Shown here: positions 3,051 to 38,112 of the stretch, one piece after another
How the letters are laid out: each line of letters begins with the position of its first letter
Numbering within the stretch: the stretch's first letter is position 1
Virus record (IMG/VR): IMGVR_UViG_2690316068_000001
Location: 31,208-95,207 of that record
Length of the DNA: 64,000 bases
DNA from: a virus
Taxonomy: Duplodnaviria; Heunggongvirae; Uroviricota; Caudoviricetes
Strand: one strand, 5' to 3'
Made by a program: the position numbers and the translations under genes
The notes under the pieces: model-generated
Seen by the model: only the letters and a program-made list of their open reading frames with translations
The model's database searches: none
What the model was told of the DNA's origin: nothing

Positions 3051-5311
3051 AAGAGCTGTGCTATGGATCTGTTTGCAGTGGAATTGAAGCCGCGAGTATT
3101 GCCTGGGAACCGTTGGGTATGCGTCCGGCGTGGTTTGCTGAAATCGAGCCTTTTCCATCTGCCGTTCTTGCGCACCGCTGGCCCCATGTCGCCAACCTTG
3201 GCGACATGACAAAACTTGCCAAAAAAGTCCTGGCTGGGGAAATCGAATCCCCTGATGTGCTCGTCGGGGGAACACCTTGTCAGGCATTCAGTATCGCGGG
3301 CTTACGTGGTGGGCTTGATGATGAACGCGGCGCGCTAACTTTGAAGTATGTGGAGCTTGCAAATGCAATTGACGACAAACGGTCTGAGTCCTTCCTCAAA
3401 CCGACAGTTATCGTCTGGGAAAATGTCCCAGGAGTCCTGTCATCGGCAGATAACGCCTTCGGATGTTTCCTTGCCGGATTGGCTGGAGAAGATGCGCCAT
3501 TTGAACCAGGTGATCGACCTGAATCAGGAAAAAGTAACGCGTTCTGGCGGTGGGATGGCAAAACCGGTTGCCATGCTCCAAAGTGGCCGCAGTGTGGTTG
3601 TATTTATGGACCGCAGCGAAAGGTGGCCTGGAGAATCCTTGATGCCCAATACTTCGGAGTGGCACAACGACGCCGACGCGTGTTTGTTGTCGCAAGTGCT
3701 CGAACAGACCTCGATCCCGCAACGGTACTTTTTGAGTTCGAAGGCGTGCGCCGGGATATTGCGCCGAGCCGAAAAAAGAAGGAAATCGCTTCCGCCATTA
3801 TTGCAAATGGCGCTGCAATCAGTGGCGAAAGCCTAAATCCATGCCTACACGCTGACATTCCACCCGGTATGAAATCGACGAAAGCCGTAAACGCTTTCAG
3901 GATGGCAGCATTTGGGGAATATATTGACGATGAAACCGCATCGACAGTAAAGGCAAGAGATTTTAAAGATGCCACTGACCTTGCCGTTTTTAGCAGCACA
4001 GGAGCAGGTTTTTGGTCAGAAGGGCATGGTACATTGCGGGCACGTGAGCAAGAAAGCCATGAGCATCTTGTTACATTGGCTTTTCCTGAGCGTATGAGCG
4101 GTACACAACATGCTGCAACTAAGAATACTTCACCATCTCTAATGGCTAAAAATCCAACAGCTGTTTGCTATGAAGTAAGAAACGCAGAAGTAGCTGTCCG
4201 CCGTCTTACCCCTGTCGAATGTGAAAGGCTGCAAGGTTTTCCTGATGGGCATACGTTGATCCCGACGGAAAAGCGTAAAAAAGTTAATTCAGATGAACTG
4301 GCATATCTTCGCAATCACTATCCAGATTTAAGCGAAGAAGAGGCCGCGATGCTTGCAGCTGACGGACCGCGTTACAAAGCGATCGGCAATAGTATGGCAA
4401 TACCAGTAATGCGCTGGATTGGCGATCGGATTACTAAGGCCGTATGTCGGCAGAAAGAAGGAAGTAAAACAAAAGAGCGAAAAGTTAAACCAGCGGCAGA
4501 ATTCGAACGGTCCATATTCAAATGGGCTGGTGGAAAATTTGGTGTTCTGGAACAAATCTTTCGCTATTTGCCAGAAGGGAAGCGCCTGATTGAACCTTTC
4601 GTTGGTGGCGGAGCTGTCTTCATGAATGCCGGATACCAGGAAAATCTGCTAAATGATGTGAATGCTGACCTGATTAACTTTTACAAGACTCTGCAACGCG
4701 AGGCGCATTCACTTATCACTCTGGCACATCGTTTCTTCCAGGACTACAACACACAGGAAGGATACCTGGCAGTACGGAATGCGTTTAACAAACAAGTCTA
4801 TGATGATTTACATCGCGCAGCGGCGTTTTTGTTCCTGAACCGACATTGTTTTAACGGATTGACGCGTTACAACCAGGCTGGTGAGTTCAATGTCGGTTAT
4901 GGGAAGTATAAAACTCCGTATTTCCCATTACAGGAGATGGAAGCCTTCCTCGGTGCGGAAGGGCGGTCTGAGTTTGTATGCGGTGATTTTGCAGCGGTGA
5001 TTGAAGCTGCCGGAGAAGGAGATGTCATCTTTTGCGATCCGCCGTATGAACCGCTTCCAAATACAGAGGGATTCACGAACTATTCCGGTCATGACTTTAA
5101 GTTTGAAGAGCAAAAACGCCTGGTGTCTCTGTTGACGGATGCTCATCGTCGAGGTGCAAAGGTTCTCATTACTAACAGTGGCGCGCCAAATATCAGAGAG
5201 CTTTATCATGACAGTGGCTTCAGAGTGGAACCTCTTTTTGCCAGACGTTCTGTGTCTTGTAAGGGGGACACTCGAGGTGTAGCTCATGACGTTTTAGGTA
5301 TATTGCTCTAA
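3047..5311 (+). CDS. dmt: bifunctional DNA methyltransferase (N-terminal C5-cytosine, C-terminal N6-adenine Dam-like)
   Basis: 754 aa; [11 protein letters not shown] (C5-MTase PCQ motif) and ENVPG in N-terminal half; FCDPPYEP (DPPY N6-MTase motif) in C-terminal half; same length and architecture as P1 Dmt. Confidence 0.85.
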
Positions 5312-5330: not shown

Positions 5331-5984
5331 TCGCCTCAATGAATCGTGATTTATAGAGCGATTTAGCTGTTAGCCGCGACAGGCGCGGCGGTAAGCATGG
5401 CTGGGCCTAGTCCTCCCAGACAAACCACCGAGTTGCCAGGTTGACCATGCGCCTAAGTGGCAACTCCGAAGTGCGTTACGAGCTTCCAGTTTGCCCATCT
5501 TCGGGTGGGCGTTTTTTTTCAGGGTTTTCGTCATGGTTAGCGACTTTGCGGCGGTTTAGAAACTGACCATTAAAGTAAATGCAAACGATGATCTGATGAT
5601 GGTAGCGGCCTAAGAAGCCAGACGCCACGGGGTATGAGTCGTCCCCCGTCAAAAAATCGACCGCAGAGTGTCCCCGTCTGTGTATTAGGGAACGGGGAGA
5701 CACAACAGGTAAGGGCGCTGGTGTGATTAACCAGATGAACGAGAAGGGGCCATCTGTTGGTCAGCGTCCTTTCCTGTTGCGTTTTCTTTTCAGCGTAACA
5801 GCGGTGCTTAACAGCACTTTGGGTACAGTTCCACGAATTTACGGGTATATCCCGTCATGCTGAAAGCGCTAATCACGCTGGAAGCCAGGGTTATGCATCC
5901 CCTGTTACCGAATTGCAGCCAGGGCGCGGTGCGCCGAAAAGCATACGGAGGTGGAAGCCCTCGCCGGAGACGTACCCGGCAAGT

Positions 5985-26995: not shown

Positions 26996-27909
26996 CCAGA
27001 ATCACTGAAGAGCGTATATCAGAGATTATTTCCCGTATCGAAATGTATGGTCACGGTGCTGGATATACGGCAGATGAAGTATTGGCACTTGCCCAAATGG
27101 TTTTGGCGGCTTGCAAAGATGATAAAAAAATGAAGTTTATCGACTTGTTAGTGAAGGAGCTGCCTAAGTGCGGCGGGTGGCCTGATGGAATGAGTTATTG
27201 TTACCTACCCAGTGTCAATTTAATGGCACCATGCGCGACTTTTGCTTTTGGCTCAGACCACAAAAAAGACACTTTCTTTGGGCGCAATTTTTGTTGTGAT
27301 ATTGAGCTTCCAATTGGTGACCTTGATAGCGATGAATACCAGTCAGTTGTCACTCGCGAACAATACGAATCAGCTCTCATAGCGTCGCAGAAAGTCGAGT
27401 TCAATGGTGATGAACTTGAAAGTAAGACTTACAGGTTGGATTTTGGGCAATGGCTGGAACAGCAACGCGGGAAAATCGATGTGGACTGTGGTTGTGTGTC
27501 CACTGAAACATTCATGCACTGGCTGCGGGTAGCTTACGAGGCTGGCAACTATCCGGATATTCCGGATAGTTCGGTGCCAGCGCCAGGAAAGGGCGTCACC
27601 GGTGAACGTATCCGCATTAAGCCGCATGTTTATCGCGAACTGGTTAACCGTCTCCACGATACAGCGATCAAGTGTGCTGGCACCCAGCAATTACGAGAAA
27701 GAATTAGCCGTGTTTTGGGCGACGTTATTACGCCATATCATCATAAACAAGCCGAGAAAAGCGGTCTGGAAAGGTGTCATCTTGAGGCAGTATTAAACAT
27801 TAAGCCGGGGCATACGCTTGGCATTATTGATGCACTGTTGGTTCATAAGATGGCCATGGCTTTATTGTCGTTGGTGGACGCTGGTGATACAAGCGAGGGT
27901 GAAGTATGA
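26977..27909 (+). CDS. hypothetical protein
   Basis: 310-aa ORF. Confidence 0.4.
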   Translation: MAQKEMTRITEERISEIISRIEMYGHGAGYTADEVLALAQMVLAACKDDKKMKFIDLLVKELPKCGGWPDGMSYCYLPSVNLMAPCATFAFGSDHKKDTFFGRNFCCDIELPIGDLDSDEYQSVVTREQYESALIASQKVEFNGDELESKTYRLDFGQWLEQQRGKIDVDCGCVSTETFMHWLRVAYEAGNYPDIPDSSVPAPGKGVTGERIRIKPHVYRELVNRLHDTAIKCAGTQQLRERISRVLGDVITPYHHKQAEKSGLERCHLEAVLNIKPGHTLGIIDALLVHKMAMALLSLVDAGDTSEGEV

Positions 27910-28268
27910 GAGTTGCAGATCACATCAAACACCTTGAAAGAATTATCGAAAACGGTGAACTCTTAAGAGATCAGATGAGACGCACGGCAGAAGCCAGGGA
28001 GGCGATAATCCGCAGTCAGGCTGGTAAATTAAAGCAATTGTCAGAGATTAACACGCTATACAAGAACAGACGTAACCGGGCGGTGATGCGGCTTCAGAAA
28101 GCACGTAATGAAATTAAATTGGTGGAGGCAAAACTGAAAAAACAGATCCAGCGTTACGATCAGCAAGATGCTTTTTATGCCGCCATCAAGGCGGCTGCTA
28201 ATGAAATAGGCATCTGGAAGTTGCTGGTGGAGAAAGCAAAGACGAAGTTAAATGCCAACGAAAGCTGA
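27906..28268 (+). CDS. hypothetical coiled-coil protein
   Basis: 120 aa, charged heptad-like. Confidence 0.4.
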   Translation: MRVADHIKHLERIIENGELLRDQMRRTAEAREAIIRSQAGKLKQLSEINTLYKNRRNRAVMRLQKARNEIKLVEAKLKKQIQRYDQQDAFYAAIKAAANEIGIWKLLVEKAKTKLNANES

Positions 28269-28343
28269 ACTACAGGTGCCCACCAGCACATACAGAAAAT
28301 GATTGTTTCCACATCAAGGAGATTTTAATGTTTCACTGAAACA

Positions 28344-28481
28344 TTAAGTAAGCCAGTGCATAATTCCATTTTTTACTGACCTTAAAAGCAAAATCAAAAC
28401 GATGATGAGGATAATAGCCAGAATCTGGCTAATAATAGGCGCATCTAAAAATGCACTCAGGAACTGAAAAAAAGCGTTCAT
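28344..28481 (-). CDS. small hydrophobic peptide (45 aa), possible membrane-active peptide
   Basis: MNAFFQFLSAFLDAPIISQILAIILIIVLILLLRSVKNGIMHWLT on minus strand in AT-rich gap. Confidence 0.25.
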   Translation of the reverse strand: MNAFFQFLSAFLDAPIISQILAIILIIVLILLLRSVKNGIMHWLT

Positions 28482-29343
28482 TCAGGTGGTTCCTTGTCAA
28501 ATGTAAAGGTGCACTTGCTCACGTTGACGTAGAAACCCAACCCCTATATAGTTGGATTCGGTGAATGAAAGTCGTTAACGTGAGCTTACGGCACATGTTT
28601 TCGGAAAAACATCAGGGAACGGCTAATTCCTTGATGCGGGTGGGGTCTGTAATGCAGACCCTATCTATTAACGTCATGATTGCATCTCAAATTTTCTCCT
28701 TATCTTCAATTAATCTACATTCATTTCATCTGTTAGCCACCACAATATGTAGAAAATGGCCCTCTTGCAAGTGCATAACTTTGTGGATAACTCAGGAAGG
28801 AAAAAGTGGCTTTCGCGCACCTTCGGTCAGACAAGGTGTCCGGGAAAGTCAACGCAAAGAAAAAAATTGTTAAAAATAACGTTTGTTGGAATTGTATATT
28901 TCTATCCCCTTCAATGGTTAGCATTCTATTAACATCTTTTTTTAGAGACAGAAAAACATATCGTAACAACATATATACAGTATTAAGAGGCGAGTATTAT
29001 CCTGCGGTGGGAATTCTGGGTGCTGTTAGATTCGACTTTCTCAGCAGGATTACATCGTCAACTTGCGACGTTGCCGTATGACTTTCGTGTAATAGGTGAC
29101 AATGATGCGGCTAGTGAGTTACTTGTGAAGTTTTTCGGAAAAGGTTTTGTGGCCTCGGATCTTGATGAGCTACAGCAACATGAAGTGTCTAATTTGATTT
29201 TTAGCCATAGCCAATAAGCCTCCCTCCTCCATCAAGGCCACAATTTGTGACCTTAAACAATTTGTTTTCTGCTTTTTCTTATTTGAGGAAATAACGTTGT
29301 TGACAGCTAATAGGCTCGTTGTTGTTATACATGCCTGTATAGA

Positions 29344-29700
29344 TTATGACCGTAAATTATTAGCGGATTTTAAGCCATATTCACCGTTGTAGAAATTACT
29401 CATGTTCCATTCATTAGGAAGTTCTTTTCTGTCCAATGTATAGTGGCGCACGATATAACGATCTTCATCTTCTTCGATGGACAGGCGGACATAGCCAATG
29501 TGAATCACCGATACGGGCGGTGTTCGTATTGCATAGATGTCGCGGAGATATACCGGCAGCTCGACAAATGCATCAGGTGCATCTGTGATGCTCGTTTTTT
29601 CACAGTATTCATATAACGCATCGTTGATATCGTTAAGAGATTCATGATCGTATATTTCCAGGTAATTACCGCGATCACGATGGTACTCGATTTTAGCCAT
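29344..29700 (-). CDS. hypothetical protein (gene 2 of two-gene minus-strand cassette)
   Basis: 118-aa ORF whose start abuts stop of upstream 194-aa ORF. Confidence 0.45.
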   Translation of the reverse strand: MAKIEYHRDRGNYLEIYDHESLNDINDALYEYCEKTSITDAPDAFVELPVYLRDIYAIRTPPVSVIHIGYVRLSIEEDEDRYIVRHYTLDRKELPNEWNMSNFYNGEYGLKSANNLRS

Positions 29701-30285
29701 TCAAAATCCCCTGTTATCGTTTTGCATTTCTCTAATCCGGTTCAGAACTACTTCGTGCTGGACTTGGATAGCGGCTTTTTCGTTTTCAAGCCGGGCAATA
29801 GACATCTCTAATTCTTTGCTGTACCAGGCGAGCTGGGCCAGGTTCATCCGGTTGTGGTCGAGAGTTGGAGACACTTCGACGCGATCCCTTTCTTCCTGCT
29901 TTAATGAGAAGAGATTTATCTCATCCCTTGAGGAAAATTCAGCAACAATTTCTTGTTGATGATCCGGTCGCTGCGGCATCCTCGCCAGTATAAATGGCGG
30001 TTCTTTTGAAAACATGAATGTCGGTTCAGACCGTGTTTTTACCCAGCTTGCCTGCTGTCTTTCGGCAAGTTCACAGGCTTCATCATAGTTATCTGCCAAA
30101 CAAAGCACGGATGGACGGTCCCACGCCCCACCATTCAGACAATAAACTACAATTTTCCCGTCAGGTTGTGTAACCCCATATGGATGGTCCCACCAGGCGT
30201 CCAGCTGAGCTTTAGAGCGTTTCTCGTTAGGAGTGCAGTCAAAATTTTTGGGCAATACAGGATCGAGAGGAATGCGATTAGGCAT
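29701..30285 (-). CDS. hypothetical protein (gene 1 of two-gene minus-strand cassette)
   Basis: 194-aa ORF divergent from humD promoter region; no motif recognised. Confidence 0.45.
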   Translation of the reverse strand: MPNRIPLDPVLPKNFDCTPNEKRSKAQLDAWWDHPYGVTQPDGKIVVYCLNGGAWDRPSVLCLADNYDEACELAERQQASWVKTRSEPTFMFSKEPPFILARMPQRPDHQQEIVAEFSSRDEINLFSLKQEERDRVEVSPTLDHNRMNLAQLAWYSKELEMSIARLENEKAAIQVQHEVVLNRIREMQNDNRGF

Positions 30286-30423
30286 AGCTAATTCCTTATT
30301 AACTGATTGGCAACGAGGTTACGCTGATCCGTTGGTGATGAATAGTAGCAAAGAGCACAAAATCATCAGCGGTGGTTGATGTACGTAACGCGTTTGCACC
30401 AAAGGTGTCTCTTTAATGTATAC

Positions 30424-30439
30424 TGTATAAATGAACAGT
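30424..30439 (+). promoter_or_regulatory. LexA (SOS) box
   Basis: CTGTATAAATGAACAG fits CTGT-N8-ACAG; 20 bp upstream of humD start. Confidence 0.75.
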
Positions 30440-30459
30440 ATTATTGAGGTGAAAACGCT

Positions 30460-30849
30460 ATGGGCTTCCCTTCTCCTGCGGCGGATTATGTTGAAAGCCG
30501 AATTTCTCTTGATCAGCAACTAATCAGGCATCCATCAGCAACCTACTTCATGCGGGCAGCTGATAGCCATCACCGTGAGGGAATATTGCAGGGTGCTTTG
30601 CTGGTGGTTGATTCCTCGCTTACTCCGGTTGATGGTTCTCTGCTTGTGTGCGCTATGGAGGGTGAATATCGCATAAAGAGATACAGGAAGTATCCGCGCC
30701 AGCACCTGGAGGATTTAAGCACCGGGAAGAAAGAGGCGTTACCAGTAGATGACGATGGATGCACGGGCAGTAATGCTGTTTTTGGTGTGATCACTCATGT
30801 CATCAATGATGCCCGAAGTGGGGAGTTTGATGATTGTCCGGTTATTTAA
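30460..30849 (+). CDS. humD: UmuD-like SOS mutagenesis protein homolog
   Basis: Close parallel to UmuD (FPSPAADYVE..RISLDQQLIRHPSATYFM...VFGVITHVIN); LexA box upstream. Confidence 0.8.
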   Translation: MGFPSPAADYVESRISLDQQLIRHPSATYFMRAADSHHREGILQGALLVVDSSLTPVDGSLLVCAMEGEYRIKRYRKYPRQHLEDLSTGKKEALPVDDDGCTGSNAVFGVITHVINDARSGEFDDCPVI

Positions 30850-30921
30850 GCTGCAAAGGGCTGGTGCTTTATGCCTGTGAGGTTTATAATTGTGTACACA
30901 TAACGAGTACACGAGGTGTTT

Positions 30922-31143
30922 ATGCAATCCATTAACTTCCGTACCGCGCGCGGCAACCTTTCTGAAGTGCTCAACAATGTTGAAGCCGGGGAAGAGGTTG
31001 AAATCACCCGCAGAGGCCGTGAGCCAGCAGTAATTGTCAGCAAGGCTACTTTCGAAGCCTACAAAAAAGCGGCGCTGGATGCTGAATTTGCATCCCTGTT
31101 TGACACCCTGGACTCCACCAACAAGGAACTGGTTAACCGATAA
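30922..31143 (+). CDS. phd: Phd antitoxin
   Basis: 73 aa [49 protein letters not shown]... matches P1 Phd as I recall it; ATGA overlap with doc. Confidence 0.9.
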
Positions 31144-31523
31144 TGAGGCATATATCACCGGAAGAACTTATTGCGCTTCATGATGCGAATATAAGCCGCT
31201 ACGGCGGCCTGCCTGGCATGTCAGATCCGGGCAGGGCAGAGGCCATTATCGGGAGAGTTCAGGCCAGAGTTGCCTACGAAGAGATCACCGACCTTTTCGA
31301 AGTCTCCGCCACCTACCTGGTGGCTACAGCGAGAGGGCATATATTCAATGATGCCAATAAGCGTACCGCGCTAAACAGCGCGCTGCTATTTCTACGCCGT
31401 AACGGGGTGCAGGTATTTGATTCACCTGAACTGGCAGACCTTACTGTAGGCGCTGCGACTGGCGAGATATCTGTATCTTCTGTCGCCGACACGTTACGTA
31501 GATTGTATGGTTCTGCGGAGTAG
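31143..31523 (+). CDS. doc: Doc toxin (Fic-family kinase)
   Basis: 126 aa with Fic motif [11 protein letters not shown]; phd-doc operon arrangement. Confidence 0.9.
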
Positions 31524-31707
31524 ATTAATGGCACGCAAATACAACAAATTGTCCCTTGAAGCGTTAAAGATGCTTCTTGATGGCGTGAGTCGCCGCAAGG
31601 TAAAGCAATACCTGGTTGGTAAGCAAATTGGAGTCAGGACCGCTATTGCTGTGTTATGCCGTCAGGAAATGGTTGTGCTTAAACAGAGAATGCCGGGCAG
31701 CAGATAA
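31507..31707 (+). CDS. small protein downstream of doc (PdcA-like)
   Basis: 66-aa ORF overlapping doc 3-prime end; by position only. Confidence 0.3.
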
Positions 31708-37694: not shown

Positions 37695-38112
37695 CTTAAG
37701 GGTTATTGAACATGATCAATTTACCTGTAAATCCATACAGTTCAATACCTTATCAGGTCAAATAGTGATCACTTGATCATTTGATCAAGGTTGCGCTACG
37801 TAAAATCTGTGAAATGTTGGCAGTGTTTGTGCTCCAGATTTCGCGTAGCGCACTTAGCACCACCAATCAATCAGAGGTGAAAAATGGGATATTCAGCTGC
37901 TAAAGTGTCCACTCATCTTGAGCTTGAGAAAAACCGTGGTTACTGGCGGGCAAAAGGGTTTGATCGTGATAGTTGTCAACTGTCATTATCGCGCGGTGAA
38001 GAGAAAATAGAACGCACGCGCGGTCGCTGGCGTTTCTATGACGAGAACCATAAACAGGTAAAGGCAGAGCCGATCCTGTACACTTTACTTAAAACCATTA
38101 TCTGAGTGTTAA

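Follow-up and report, generated by a model that had tools for sequence, protein, structure and literature searches.

Which genes occupy the interval beside humD, phd and doc in a P1-like phage-plasmid, and do they act as one unit? The interval lies at positions 29344 to 30285 of a 64,000-nucleotide stretch of a Caudoviricetes genome (IMG/VR record IMGVR_UViG_2690316068_000001, positions 31,208 to 95,207), referred to here as the window. An earlier note, made from the sequence alone, had described two unassigned, abutting minus-strand genes of 194 and 118 codons at this place and proposed that they are accessory toxin-antitoxin or defense cargo. Its coordinates are exact, a TGA being followed directly by an ATG, and the pair does sit between an AT-rich gap of about 1 kb (39% GC) and the SOS box 5' of humD. 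We identified the genes as lxr and upf93.6 of a P1-like phage-plasmid of the P7/SJ46 type. With modest confidence, we read the locus as a bicistron that would provide separate host-binding accessory factors, with SOS-linked expression.

29701..30285, minus strand: lxr (P1 Lxr / P7 Upf94.2), an open reading frame (ORF) of 194 aa
29344..29700, minus strand: upf93.6 homolog, an optional second cistron, ORF of 118 aa
29698..29711, minus strand: translational-coupling junction, read directly from the sequence

At the junction the lxr stop codon TGA (29703-29701) directly abuts the upf93.6 ATG (29700-29698). A GGGGA Shine-Dalgarno sequence (29711-29707) lies inside the lxr 3' end, 6 nt 5' of that ATG.

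Identity of the two genes

The 194-aa product is P7 Upf94.2 (AAQ07574.1; 99% identical). It shares 93% identity over 189 aa with P1 Lxr (YP_006568.1; blastp, E 1e-137) and matches phrog_6164 across residues 1-194 (E 3.5e-135). By these matches the gene is lxr of phage P1 ('LexA regulated function'). As in P1, it is divergent from humD, in the same position and orientation, with the LexA box equally distant, and it is kept at this position in every humD-carrying P1-type locus examined. The window protein is 4 aa longer than P1 Lxr, with the tail ...EMQNDNRGF versus ...EVQNG. The larger difference is downstream, where P1 has the convergent gene hot and the window has the co-directional, abutting upf93.6.

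Likewise, the 118-aa gene is upf93.6 of P7, to judge from 99.2% identity of its product to Upf93.6 (AAQ07573.1; tblastn, residues 1-118). The product also matches phrog_5797 (E 3.8e-77) and is 99-100% identical to a hypothetical protein of Salmonella phage SJ46. The whole 2.2-kb region around the pair is 100% identical in DNA sequence to SJ46, a P1-like phage-plasmid, and 99.4-99.5% identical to phage P7 and several records named 'P1'. P7 thus has both proteins at 99% identity in an identical arrangement. The locus is therefore already known, having been annotated for about two decades as P1 lxr and P7 upf94.2/upf93.6. The description 'unassigned' holds for function, for which our searches gave no assignment, and fails for names.

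The earlier note had expected lxr and hot in this neighborhood. The first is present as the 194-aa gene; the second is absent from the whole 64-kb window (P1 Hot in tblastn, no match at E<=1). Neither protein of the pair matches PF06440, the theta profile, in Pfam, so its remark that neither product resembles theta was right. Both ORFs can be taken as genuine genes, because they have homologs down to ~38-57% identity and pairwise dN/dS values of 0.05-0.25 (lxr 0.05-0.25, upf93.6 0.07-0.14). The note also allowed for conserved core P1 genes with known non-defense roles. Conservation does apply to lxr; a known role does not, and our literature searches turned up no work on the function of either lxr or upf93.6. 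CRISPRi knockdown of P1 lxr gave no lytic-growth phenotype (PMC10695390); the gene is non-essential for P1 lytic growth.

Both proteins are acidic (pI 5.2 for Lxr, 4.8 for Upf93.6). The AlphaFold model of Lxr (pLDDT 87.7) has an N-terminal alpha/beta domain (residues 1 to ~131) with the order hairpin, strand, long helix, two strands, helix. This is followed by a disordered linker and a single 44-residue C-terminal helix (149-192), which is probably a coiled coil. Searches of both proteins against Pfam, NCBIfam, PADLOC and PDB (phmmer and profiles) returned noise only, in agreement with the earlier statement that there is no recognizable motif. No similarity to known replisome or repair factors was found for either protein, nor any sequence or fold likeness to known anti-defense proteins. 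No family among the PADLOC-DB v2 models was hit at E<=1, and neither protein matched a toxin or antitoxin family in Pfam, NCBIfam or PADLOC.

Three marginal matches were rejected. Pfam DUF7588 (E 0.012) is present in only 2 of 25 family members, and DUF7491 (E 0.054) merely mirrors the coiled coil. The alpha/beta fold of HicB N-terminal/UPF0150 proteins (TTHA0281) scored at the noise border with 8-14% identity. There is no HicA-like partner, and membership is unsupported.

Families, pairing and independence

The N-terminal domain of Lxr (Lxr-N, ~125 aa) also exists as a protein of its own. We found at least 286 clusters of 130-137 aa, all 53-69% identical to the query, and ~900 PLSDB plasmids that carry the domain; in hundreds of plasmids the short homolog is a singleton. 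Hosts include Enterobacteriaceae, Pseudomonas, Xanthomonas, Burkholderia, Bradyrhizobium, Rhodopseudomonas and Mesorhizobium. Its sequences and their distribution show a tightly conserved family, found only on mobile elements and, among plasmids, spread over those of alpha-, beta- and gammaproteobacteria. Its invariant motifs are C-L-N-G-G-x-W-D-R and Q-R-P-D. Proteins of the P1 clade are Lxr-N with an added C-terminal coiled-coil helix, which the short homologs lack. Neither Pfam nor NCBIfam has a model for Lxr-N, and it gave no fold match. All proteins returned by a profile search for remote or multidomain relatives were single-domain, 130-200 aa long and free of Pfam domains, and no informative domain fusions of Lxr-N were found.

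Lxr-N genes keep varied company. In Klebsiella phage-plasmid-like contigs they neighbor recA-, gp32-, 5'-3' exonuclease- and dnaE-like genes, and in Pseudomonas and Xanthomonas plasmids they lie near repA, fic/vbhA, SNase, ardC and resolvase genes. In alphaproteobacterial conjugative elements they are near SNase, methyltransferase, WGR, DUF736 and ardC genes beside traCDG. Other sites are a few kb from umuDC and tus, and near dnaC.

Several tight arrangements were seen in passing. In ~110-kb Klebsiella contigs (L008-L012, 6001-7763), Lxr-N is directly 5' of a 421-aa HEPN_Toprim_N/HEPN_RiboL-PSP gene, a candidate defense gene that is split in two in some copies. In Pseudomonas and Xanthomonas plasmids (L013-L016, 5788-7040), a 66-aa ORF, a 135-aa Lxr-N gene and a resolvase gene form a tight unit in which stop and start codons overlap. 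In a Klebsiella michiganensis plasmid (L028, 5736-6393) the ORF that overlaps the Lxr-N start is a different one, of 90 aa; the small 5' ORFs of these two arrangements are unrelated to one another.

The Upf93.6 family consists of 100-123-aa proteins with the motif H[YF]TLDRKEL..W...FY.G.YG in common, and relatives occur in 186 PLSDB plasmids. From an exhaustive profile search we took ~20 small proteins as true relatives; large multi-repeat matches in that search are BspA-type LRR_5 proteins and were discarded as repeat-pattern artifacts. UniRef labels some Photobacterium members 'DUF3630', which a Pfam scan did not reproduce.

Two plasmid groups carry a Upf93.6 homolog and no Lxr. On the complete IncN-type conjugative plasmid L034, a homolog of 38% identity follows ssb in the presumed leading region. 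It is the 13th ORF from oriT, whose place was inferred, on the same strand as ssb, on the stbABC/ardC side and directly 3' of a KorA/TrfB-like gene. On Salmonella plasmids of ~105-130 kb (L004-7), a 55%-identical homolog stands behind unrelated 81-aa and 320-aa genes; the 320-aa gene was considered as a relative of Lxr and rejected. Further members were noted at two other loci. A distant one lies directly beside an Mrr_cat restriction-nuclease gene in a Yersinia contig (L036, 3963-5348). Another lies directly beside an Mrr_cat gene in a ~41-kb E. coli contig that carries genes of conjugative plasmids (L038, 3836-6188), where it is also directly 3' of a mazE-x-pemK module.

Is the pairing itself conserved? 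The order lxr, then upf93.6 recurs in four divergent P1/AnCo3-like lineages (L031, L032, L033 and the Salmonella phage-plasmid AnCo3, L035), so the arrangement is old within the P1/AnCo3 group. In each, a Lxr homolog of 189-190 aa (64-69% identical) is followed after a gap of 9-15 nt by a Upf93.6 homolog of 113-114 aa (54-58% identical). The two genes have diverged broadly in parallel over the four lineages, and the third gene after the pair differs.

Yet each gene also occurs alone. Lxr is present without a Upf93.6 homolog in the whole P1 genome (tblastn), in pKFu022_2, which has nearly the same Lxr allele and no upf93.6 at the lxr stop codon, and in L018-20, L023 and L021. In the last the partner has been deleted, and only the last ~30 nt of a upf93.6 homolog remain directly 3' of lxr. 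The reverse case is given by L034 and L004-7. This independence argues against an obligate toxin-antitoxin or two-gene defense system. So do the searches against PADLOC and toxin and antitoxin families, which gave no match, and the lxr knockdown, which had no lytic phenotype. The toxin-antitoxin or defense cargo proposed in the earlier note is not supported by these results.

Public protein sets hold apparent Lxr-Upf93.6 fusions, among them cluster P0059 (58 member sequences), in which the Lxr C terminus, a W and Upf93.6 are read as one chain. We rejected a 'Rosetta-stone' fusion: P0059 reads the lxr TGA as W, and P0132 has frameshifts. Both are most likely artifacts of gene calling (genetic code 4) or assembly, and not natural. 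A further candidate, P0033, was set aside when its extension proved unrelated to Upf93.6.

Possible SOS linkage and functions

How might the pair be expressed? Three features of the region between lxr and humD bear on this.

30286..30459, no strand: divergent lxr/humD regulatory region, 174 bp
30421..30440, no strand: LexA (SOS) box TACTGTATAAATGAACAGTA, found by a CTGT-N8-ACAG search
30460..30849, plus strand: humD (UmuD' homolog), an ORF annotated in SJ46, P1 and P7

The center of the LexA box is 145 nt 5' of the lxr ATG, and its end is 20 nt before the humD ATG. It stands at -145 from lxr in the window, P1, L018 and L029 (all P1-lineage loci examined). The annotators of P1 and P7 assigned the box to humD, and the P1 annotation adds lxr ('LexA binding site in the regulatory region of lxr and humD'), LexA control being the annotators' inference. 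The link to lxr gains independent support from L031, because this lineage lacks humD and has a perfect box, TACTGTATACATATACAGTA (3293-3312), 116 nt 5' of its lxr homolog. That box lies in the interval that separates lxr from an unrelated, divergent 84-aa gene, and a longer palindrome, ACACATACTGTATACATATACAGTATGTGT, encloses it. In the Salmonella lineage (L021, L032) the palindrome TTTGTTTGTCAACACAAACAAA takes the place of the LexA box ~110-130 nt 5' of lxr, and may be the operator of a different repressor. We consider SOS control of the lxr-upf93.6 bicistron plausible. The neighbor humD has the box region in common with the pair and is not part of it; humD, phd and doc follow in that order on the plus strand, to the right of lxr. 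The window contains two more exact CTGT-N8-ACAG matches, CTGTTAGCCGCGACAG (5367-5382) and CTGTAAATCCATACAG (37725-37740), for a total of 3 versus 0.7 expected by chance.

Under the reading we favor, both cistrons would be transcribed leftward from the divergent region with its one LexA box, and Lxr and Upf93.6 would be made mainly once LexA is cleaved, upon DNA damage or SOS induction. In the weakest step of the proposal, the two would be non-essential and would work independently of each other, each as a small soluble protein binding to proteins of the host or of competitors. They could serve as establishment or counter-defense factors, or as replication or repair modulators. Such binding of host proteins is the likeliest reading, argued from association: the neighbors of these factors on plasmids are ssb, ardC, umuD-like genes and nucleases. 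Leading regions of conjugative plasmids are enriched in anti-defense genes co-oriented with ssb (Samuel et al. 2024, PMC11541004), and umuD-like genes often bound these anti-defense islands (PMC11541004).

The likeness to leading-region anti-defense genes (the ArdA/ArdB/ArdC, PsiB and SSB class) extends over several traits. Lxr and Upf93.6 are small, acidic and restricted to mobile elements. Genes of this class are expected among the first ~30 ORFs past oriT on its leading side, in the ssb orientation, and the IncN-type Upf93.6 homolog, co-oriented with ssb, comes 13th when ORFs are counted from the presumed oriT. Lxr-N has ardC, SNase and methyltransferase genes no more than a few kb away, and a umuD-like gene is adjacent to lxr, as at island boundaries. 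The comparison differs in that a phage-plasmid has no oriT or leading strand, and in the opposite orientations of Lxr-N and ardC in alphaproteobacterial elements. In its strongest form, the two separate families would be new classes of mobile-element factors that bind a conserved host target, so as to neutralize a defense or retune the SOS or replication response, and the locus an SOS-timed two-factor counter-defense operon; we regard this form as doubtful.

Several observations weigh against the favored reading. The LexA box is far nearer to humD (20 nt) than to lxr (~145 nt). A scan of 30286..30459 for sigma-70-like promoters gave no lxr promoter; a weak candidate, TTCACC (30453-30448), 18 nt and TATACA (30429-30424), overlaps the LexA box. 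LexA boxes 5' of lxr or Lxr-N homologs were found only in the P1 lineage and L031, and all short Lxr-N loci and other lxr lineages searched are without one. In alphaproteobacterial elements Lxr-N is on the leading side with the orientation opposite to ardC, and is therefore not obviously an early leading-strand gene. The Upf93.6 model is only moderately confident (pLDDT 67.7). The contexts of its family are mixed, with Mrr-type nucleases and mazEF as neighbors in L036 and L038, and so fit defense islands as well as counter-defense. Finally, if the name 'DNA-binding protein' given by NCBI is correct, a regulatory role of Lxr becomes more likely.

A tentative alternative takes Lxr, and perhaps Upf93.6, to be replication or repair modulators that bind a replisome or SOS component (Pol III core, beta clamp, RecA*, UmuC or SSB). 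With HumD and, in P1, Hot, they would form an SOS-timed module that adjusts prophage replication and translesion synthesis. The slot-mates and neighbors of lxr (humD, hot, toprim, hns) are all accessories of DNA replication or repair, and the Lxr-N contexts listed above (the recA-, gp32-, exonuclease- and dnaE-like genes, repA and resolvase, and the proximity to umuDC, tus and dnaC) point the same way. That Lxr-N is so unusually well conserved from one proteobacterial class to another would suit a host target that is itself conserved, and the LexA box occurs in two lineages. On the other side, neither protein resembles a known replisome or repair factor, the neighborhoods vary and consist mostly of hypothetical proteins, P1 lxr knockdown has no lytic phenotype, and nothing links Upf93.6 to DNA metabolism.

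It is improbable that the pair, or Upf93.6 alone, provides the host with anti-phage defense or superinfection exclusion. The pair does lie within one of eight variable regions of P1-like phage-plasmids (PMC9603915), members of the Upf93.6 family stand beside Mrr-type restriction nucleases and HEPN genes, and a short Lxr-N homolog precedes the HEPN-Toprim gene in Klebsiella phage-plasmid-like contigs. However, no PADLOC model matches, both proteins are small and have no recognizable enzymatic or sensor domains, and Lxr is conserved and not variable. LexA-repressed expression in an uninduced lysogen would also be odd for a constitutive prophage defense.

We give an equally low rank to Lxr as a DNA-binding transcriptional regulator of neighboring genes with Upf93.6 as a regulated passenger. 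NCBI and UniRef label many Lxr members 'DNA-binding protein', coiled-coil dimerization helices are common among regulators, and the palindrome TTTGTTTGTCAACACAAACAAA precedes lxr in L021 and L032. No model tested supports the label, NCBIfam included, and Lxr, which is acidic and whose short homologs lack the coiled coil, showed no motif or fold for DNA binding, whether HTH, RHH or other.

An addiction module, with one product a poison and the other its neutralizer, is extremely unlikely: like type II systems such as the adjacent phd-doc, the pair consists of small genes of a plasmid prophage that abut tightly and run in one direction, their adjacency is kept in four divergent lineages and in one case a distant member of the upf93.6 family comes directly after a mazEF-like pair, but the pairing is not obligate, toxin and antitoxin families gave no match, lxr knockdown is harmless and Lxr-N is a singleton in ~900 plasmids, so that the occurrence pattern largely refutes it.

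The variable slot downstream of lxr

Why does the gene 3' of lxr differ so much among related elements? Alignment of the window with P1 and pKFu022_2 defines the features that follow.

~28821..29714, no strand: P1-non-homologous segment, from pairwise alignment with P1 (GC 39-41%)
~29273..29714, no strand: insertion/deletion polymorphism of ~440 bp versus pKFu022_2, from alignment with that element
29017..29217, plus strand: toprim pseudogene remnant, from blastp, tblastn and megablast matches annotated toprim
29234..29278, plus strand: hairpin AAGGCCACAATTTGTGACCTT with a T-rich tail, read from the sequence, a perfect version being kept in pKFu022_2

The window is near-identical to P1 up to ~28820 and again from ~29714, 15 nt inside the lxr 3' end. 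Between these points ~890 bp of unrelated, lower-GC DNA replaces ~520 bp of P1 that hold the upfO 3' end, LPhot and hot, and takes in the last lxr codons. The difference from pKFu022_2 is a clean insertion or deletion at the lxr stop codon, comprising upf93.6 and 71 bp of its 3' flank, which shifts the lxr end from ...NRG* to ...NRGF*. In these alignments upf93.6 stands out as an optional gene for a small acidic protein, placed at the lxr stop codon in a variable slot. The suggestion that comparison across P1-like phages might expose variable cargo thus holds for upf93.6 (the P1 segment swap and the pKFu022_2 indel) and fails for lxr, which is conserved.

The slot immediately 3' of lxr holds hot in P1 and in L018-20 (an 80%-identity lineage), a toprim gene in pKFu022_2, hns in L023 (an Enterobacter element with an H-NS gene downstream of lxr) and upf93.6 in the window. 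P1 Hot, the theta homolog (PF06440), occupies the same place as Upf93.6 and differs from it in having an unrelated sequence, the opposite strand and the late promoter LPhot. From this comparison, the slot is a recombination hot spot at which hot, toprim, hns and upf93.6 are swapped and remnants are left behind.

One such remnant lies in the low-GC gap to the left of upf93.6 (28269-29343, ~1.07 kb, 39% GC versus 48% for the whole window). It consists of the last ~64 codons of a gene for a 174-aa 'toprim domain-containing protein' (84% identity, residues 111-174). In pKFu022_2 an intact copy of the gene converges on lxr, and ~110-kb E. coli plasmids and phages carry the gene too. In P7 an IS903 is inserted in the remnant; the window and SJ46 are without it. 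The hairpin AAGGCCACAATTTGTGACCTT is the terminator of the toprim remnant, although a terminator scan did not report it. It is the sole hairpin 3' of upf93.6 and has no U-tract on the minus strand. An Rfam scan of 27800-31600 found no element.

The gap also holds a strongly hydrophobic ORF of 45 aa, MNAFFQFLSAFLDAPIISQILAIILIIVLILLLRSVKNGIMHWLT (28344-28481, minus strand), with an AAGGAA Shine-Dalgarno sequence 5' of it; it is SJ46 gp085. The ORF is conserved, with nearly identical DNA in P1, where plus-strand upfM was called instead. It has no Pfam match, and its product could be a small membrane peptide such as a holin-like protein or type I toxin. The gap is therefore low in GC, as the earlier note had it, and is not empty.

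On the far side of humD and phd, a P1-like metagenomic contig (L019, 568-1245) carries a Tad2-like gene (anti-Thoeris family) and a dUTPase gene just past doc, in a slot that holds pdcB and lpa in other P1-like loci. We take this cargo as a further sign of counter-defense genes gathering in the humD-phd-doc neighborhood.

For P1-like elements, which are vehicles of resistance genes, the hot spot downstream of lxr helps to explain 'variable region 8'. The Lxr N-terminal domain is among the more widespread and tightly conserved domains of plasmids and phage-plasmids that have no family model or fold relative. Should either protein prove to be an SOS-linked counter-defense or replisome-modulating factor, this would explain a gene that has been uncharacterized since the 2004 annotation of the P1 genome, and would add to the repertoire of establishment genes.

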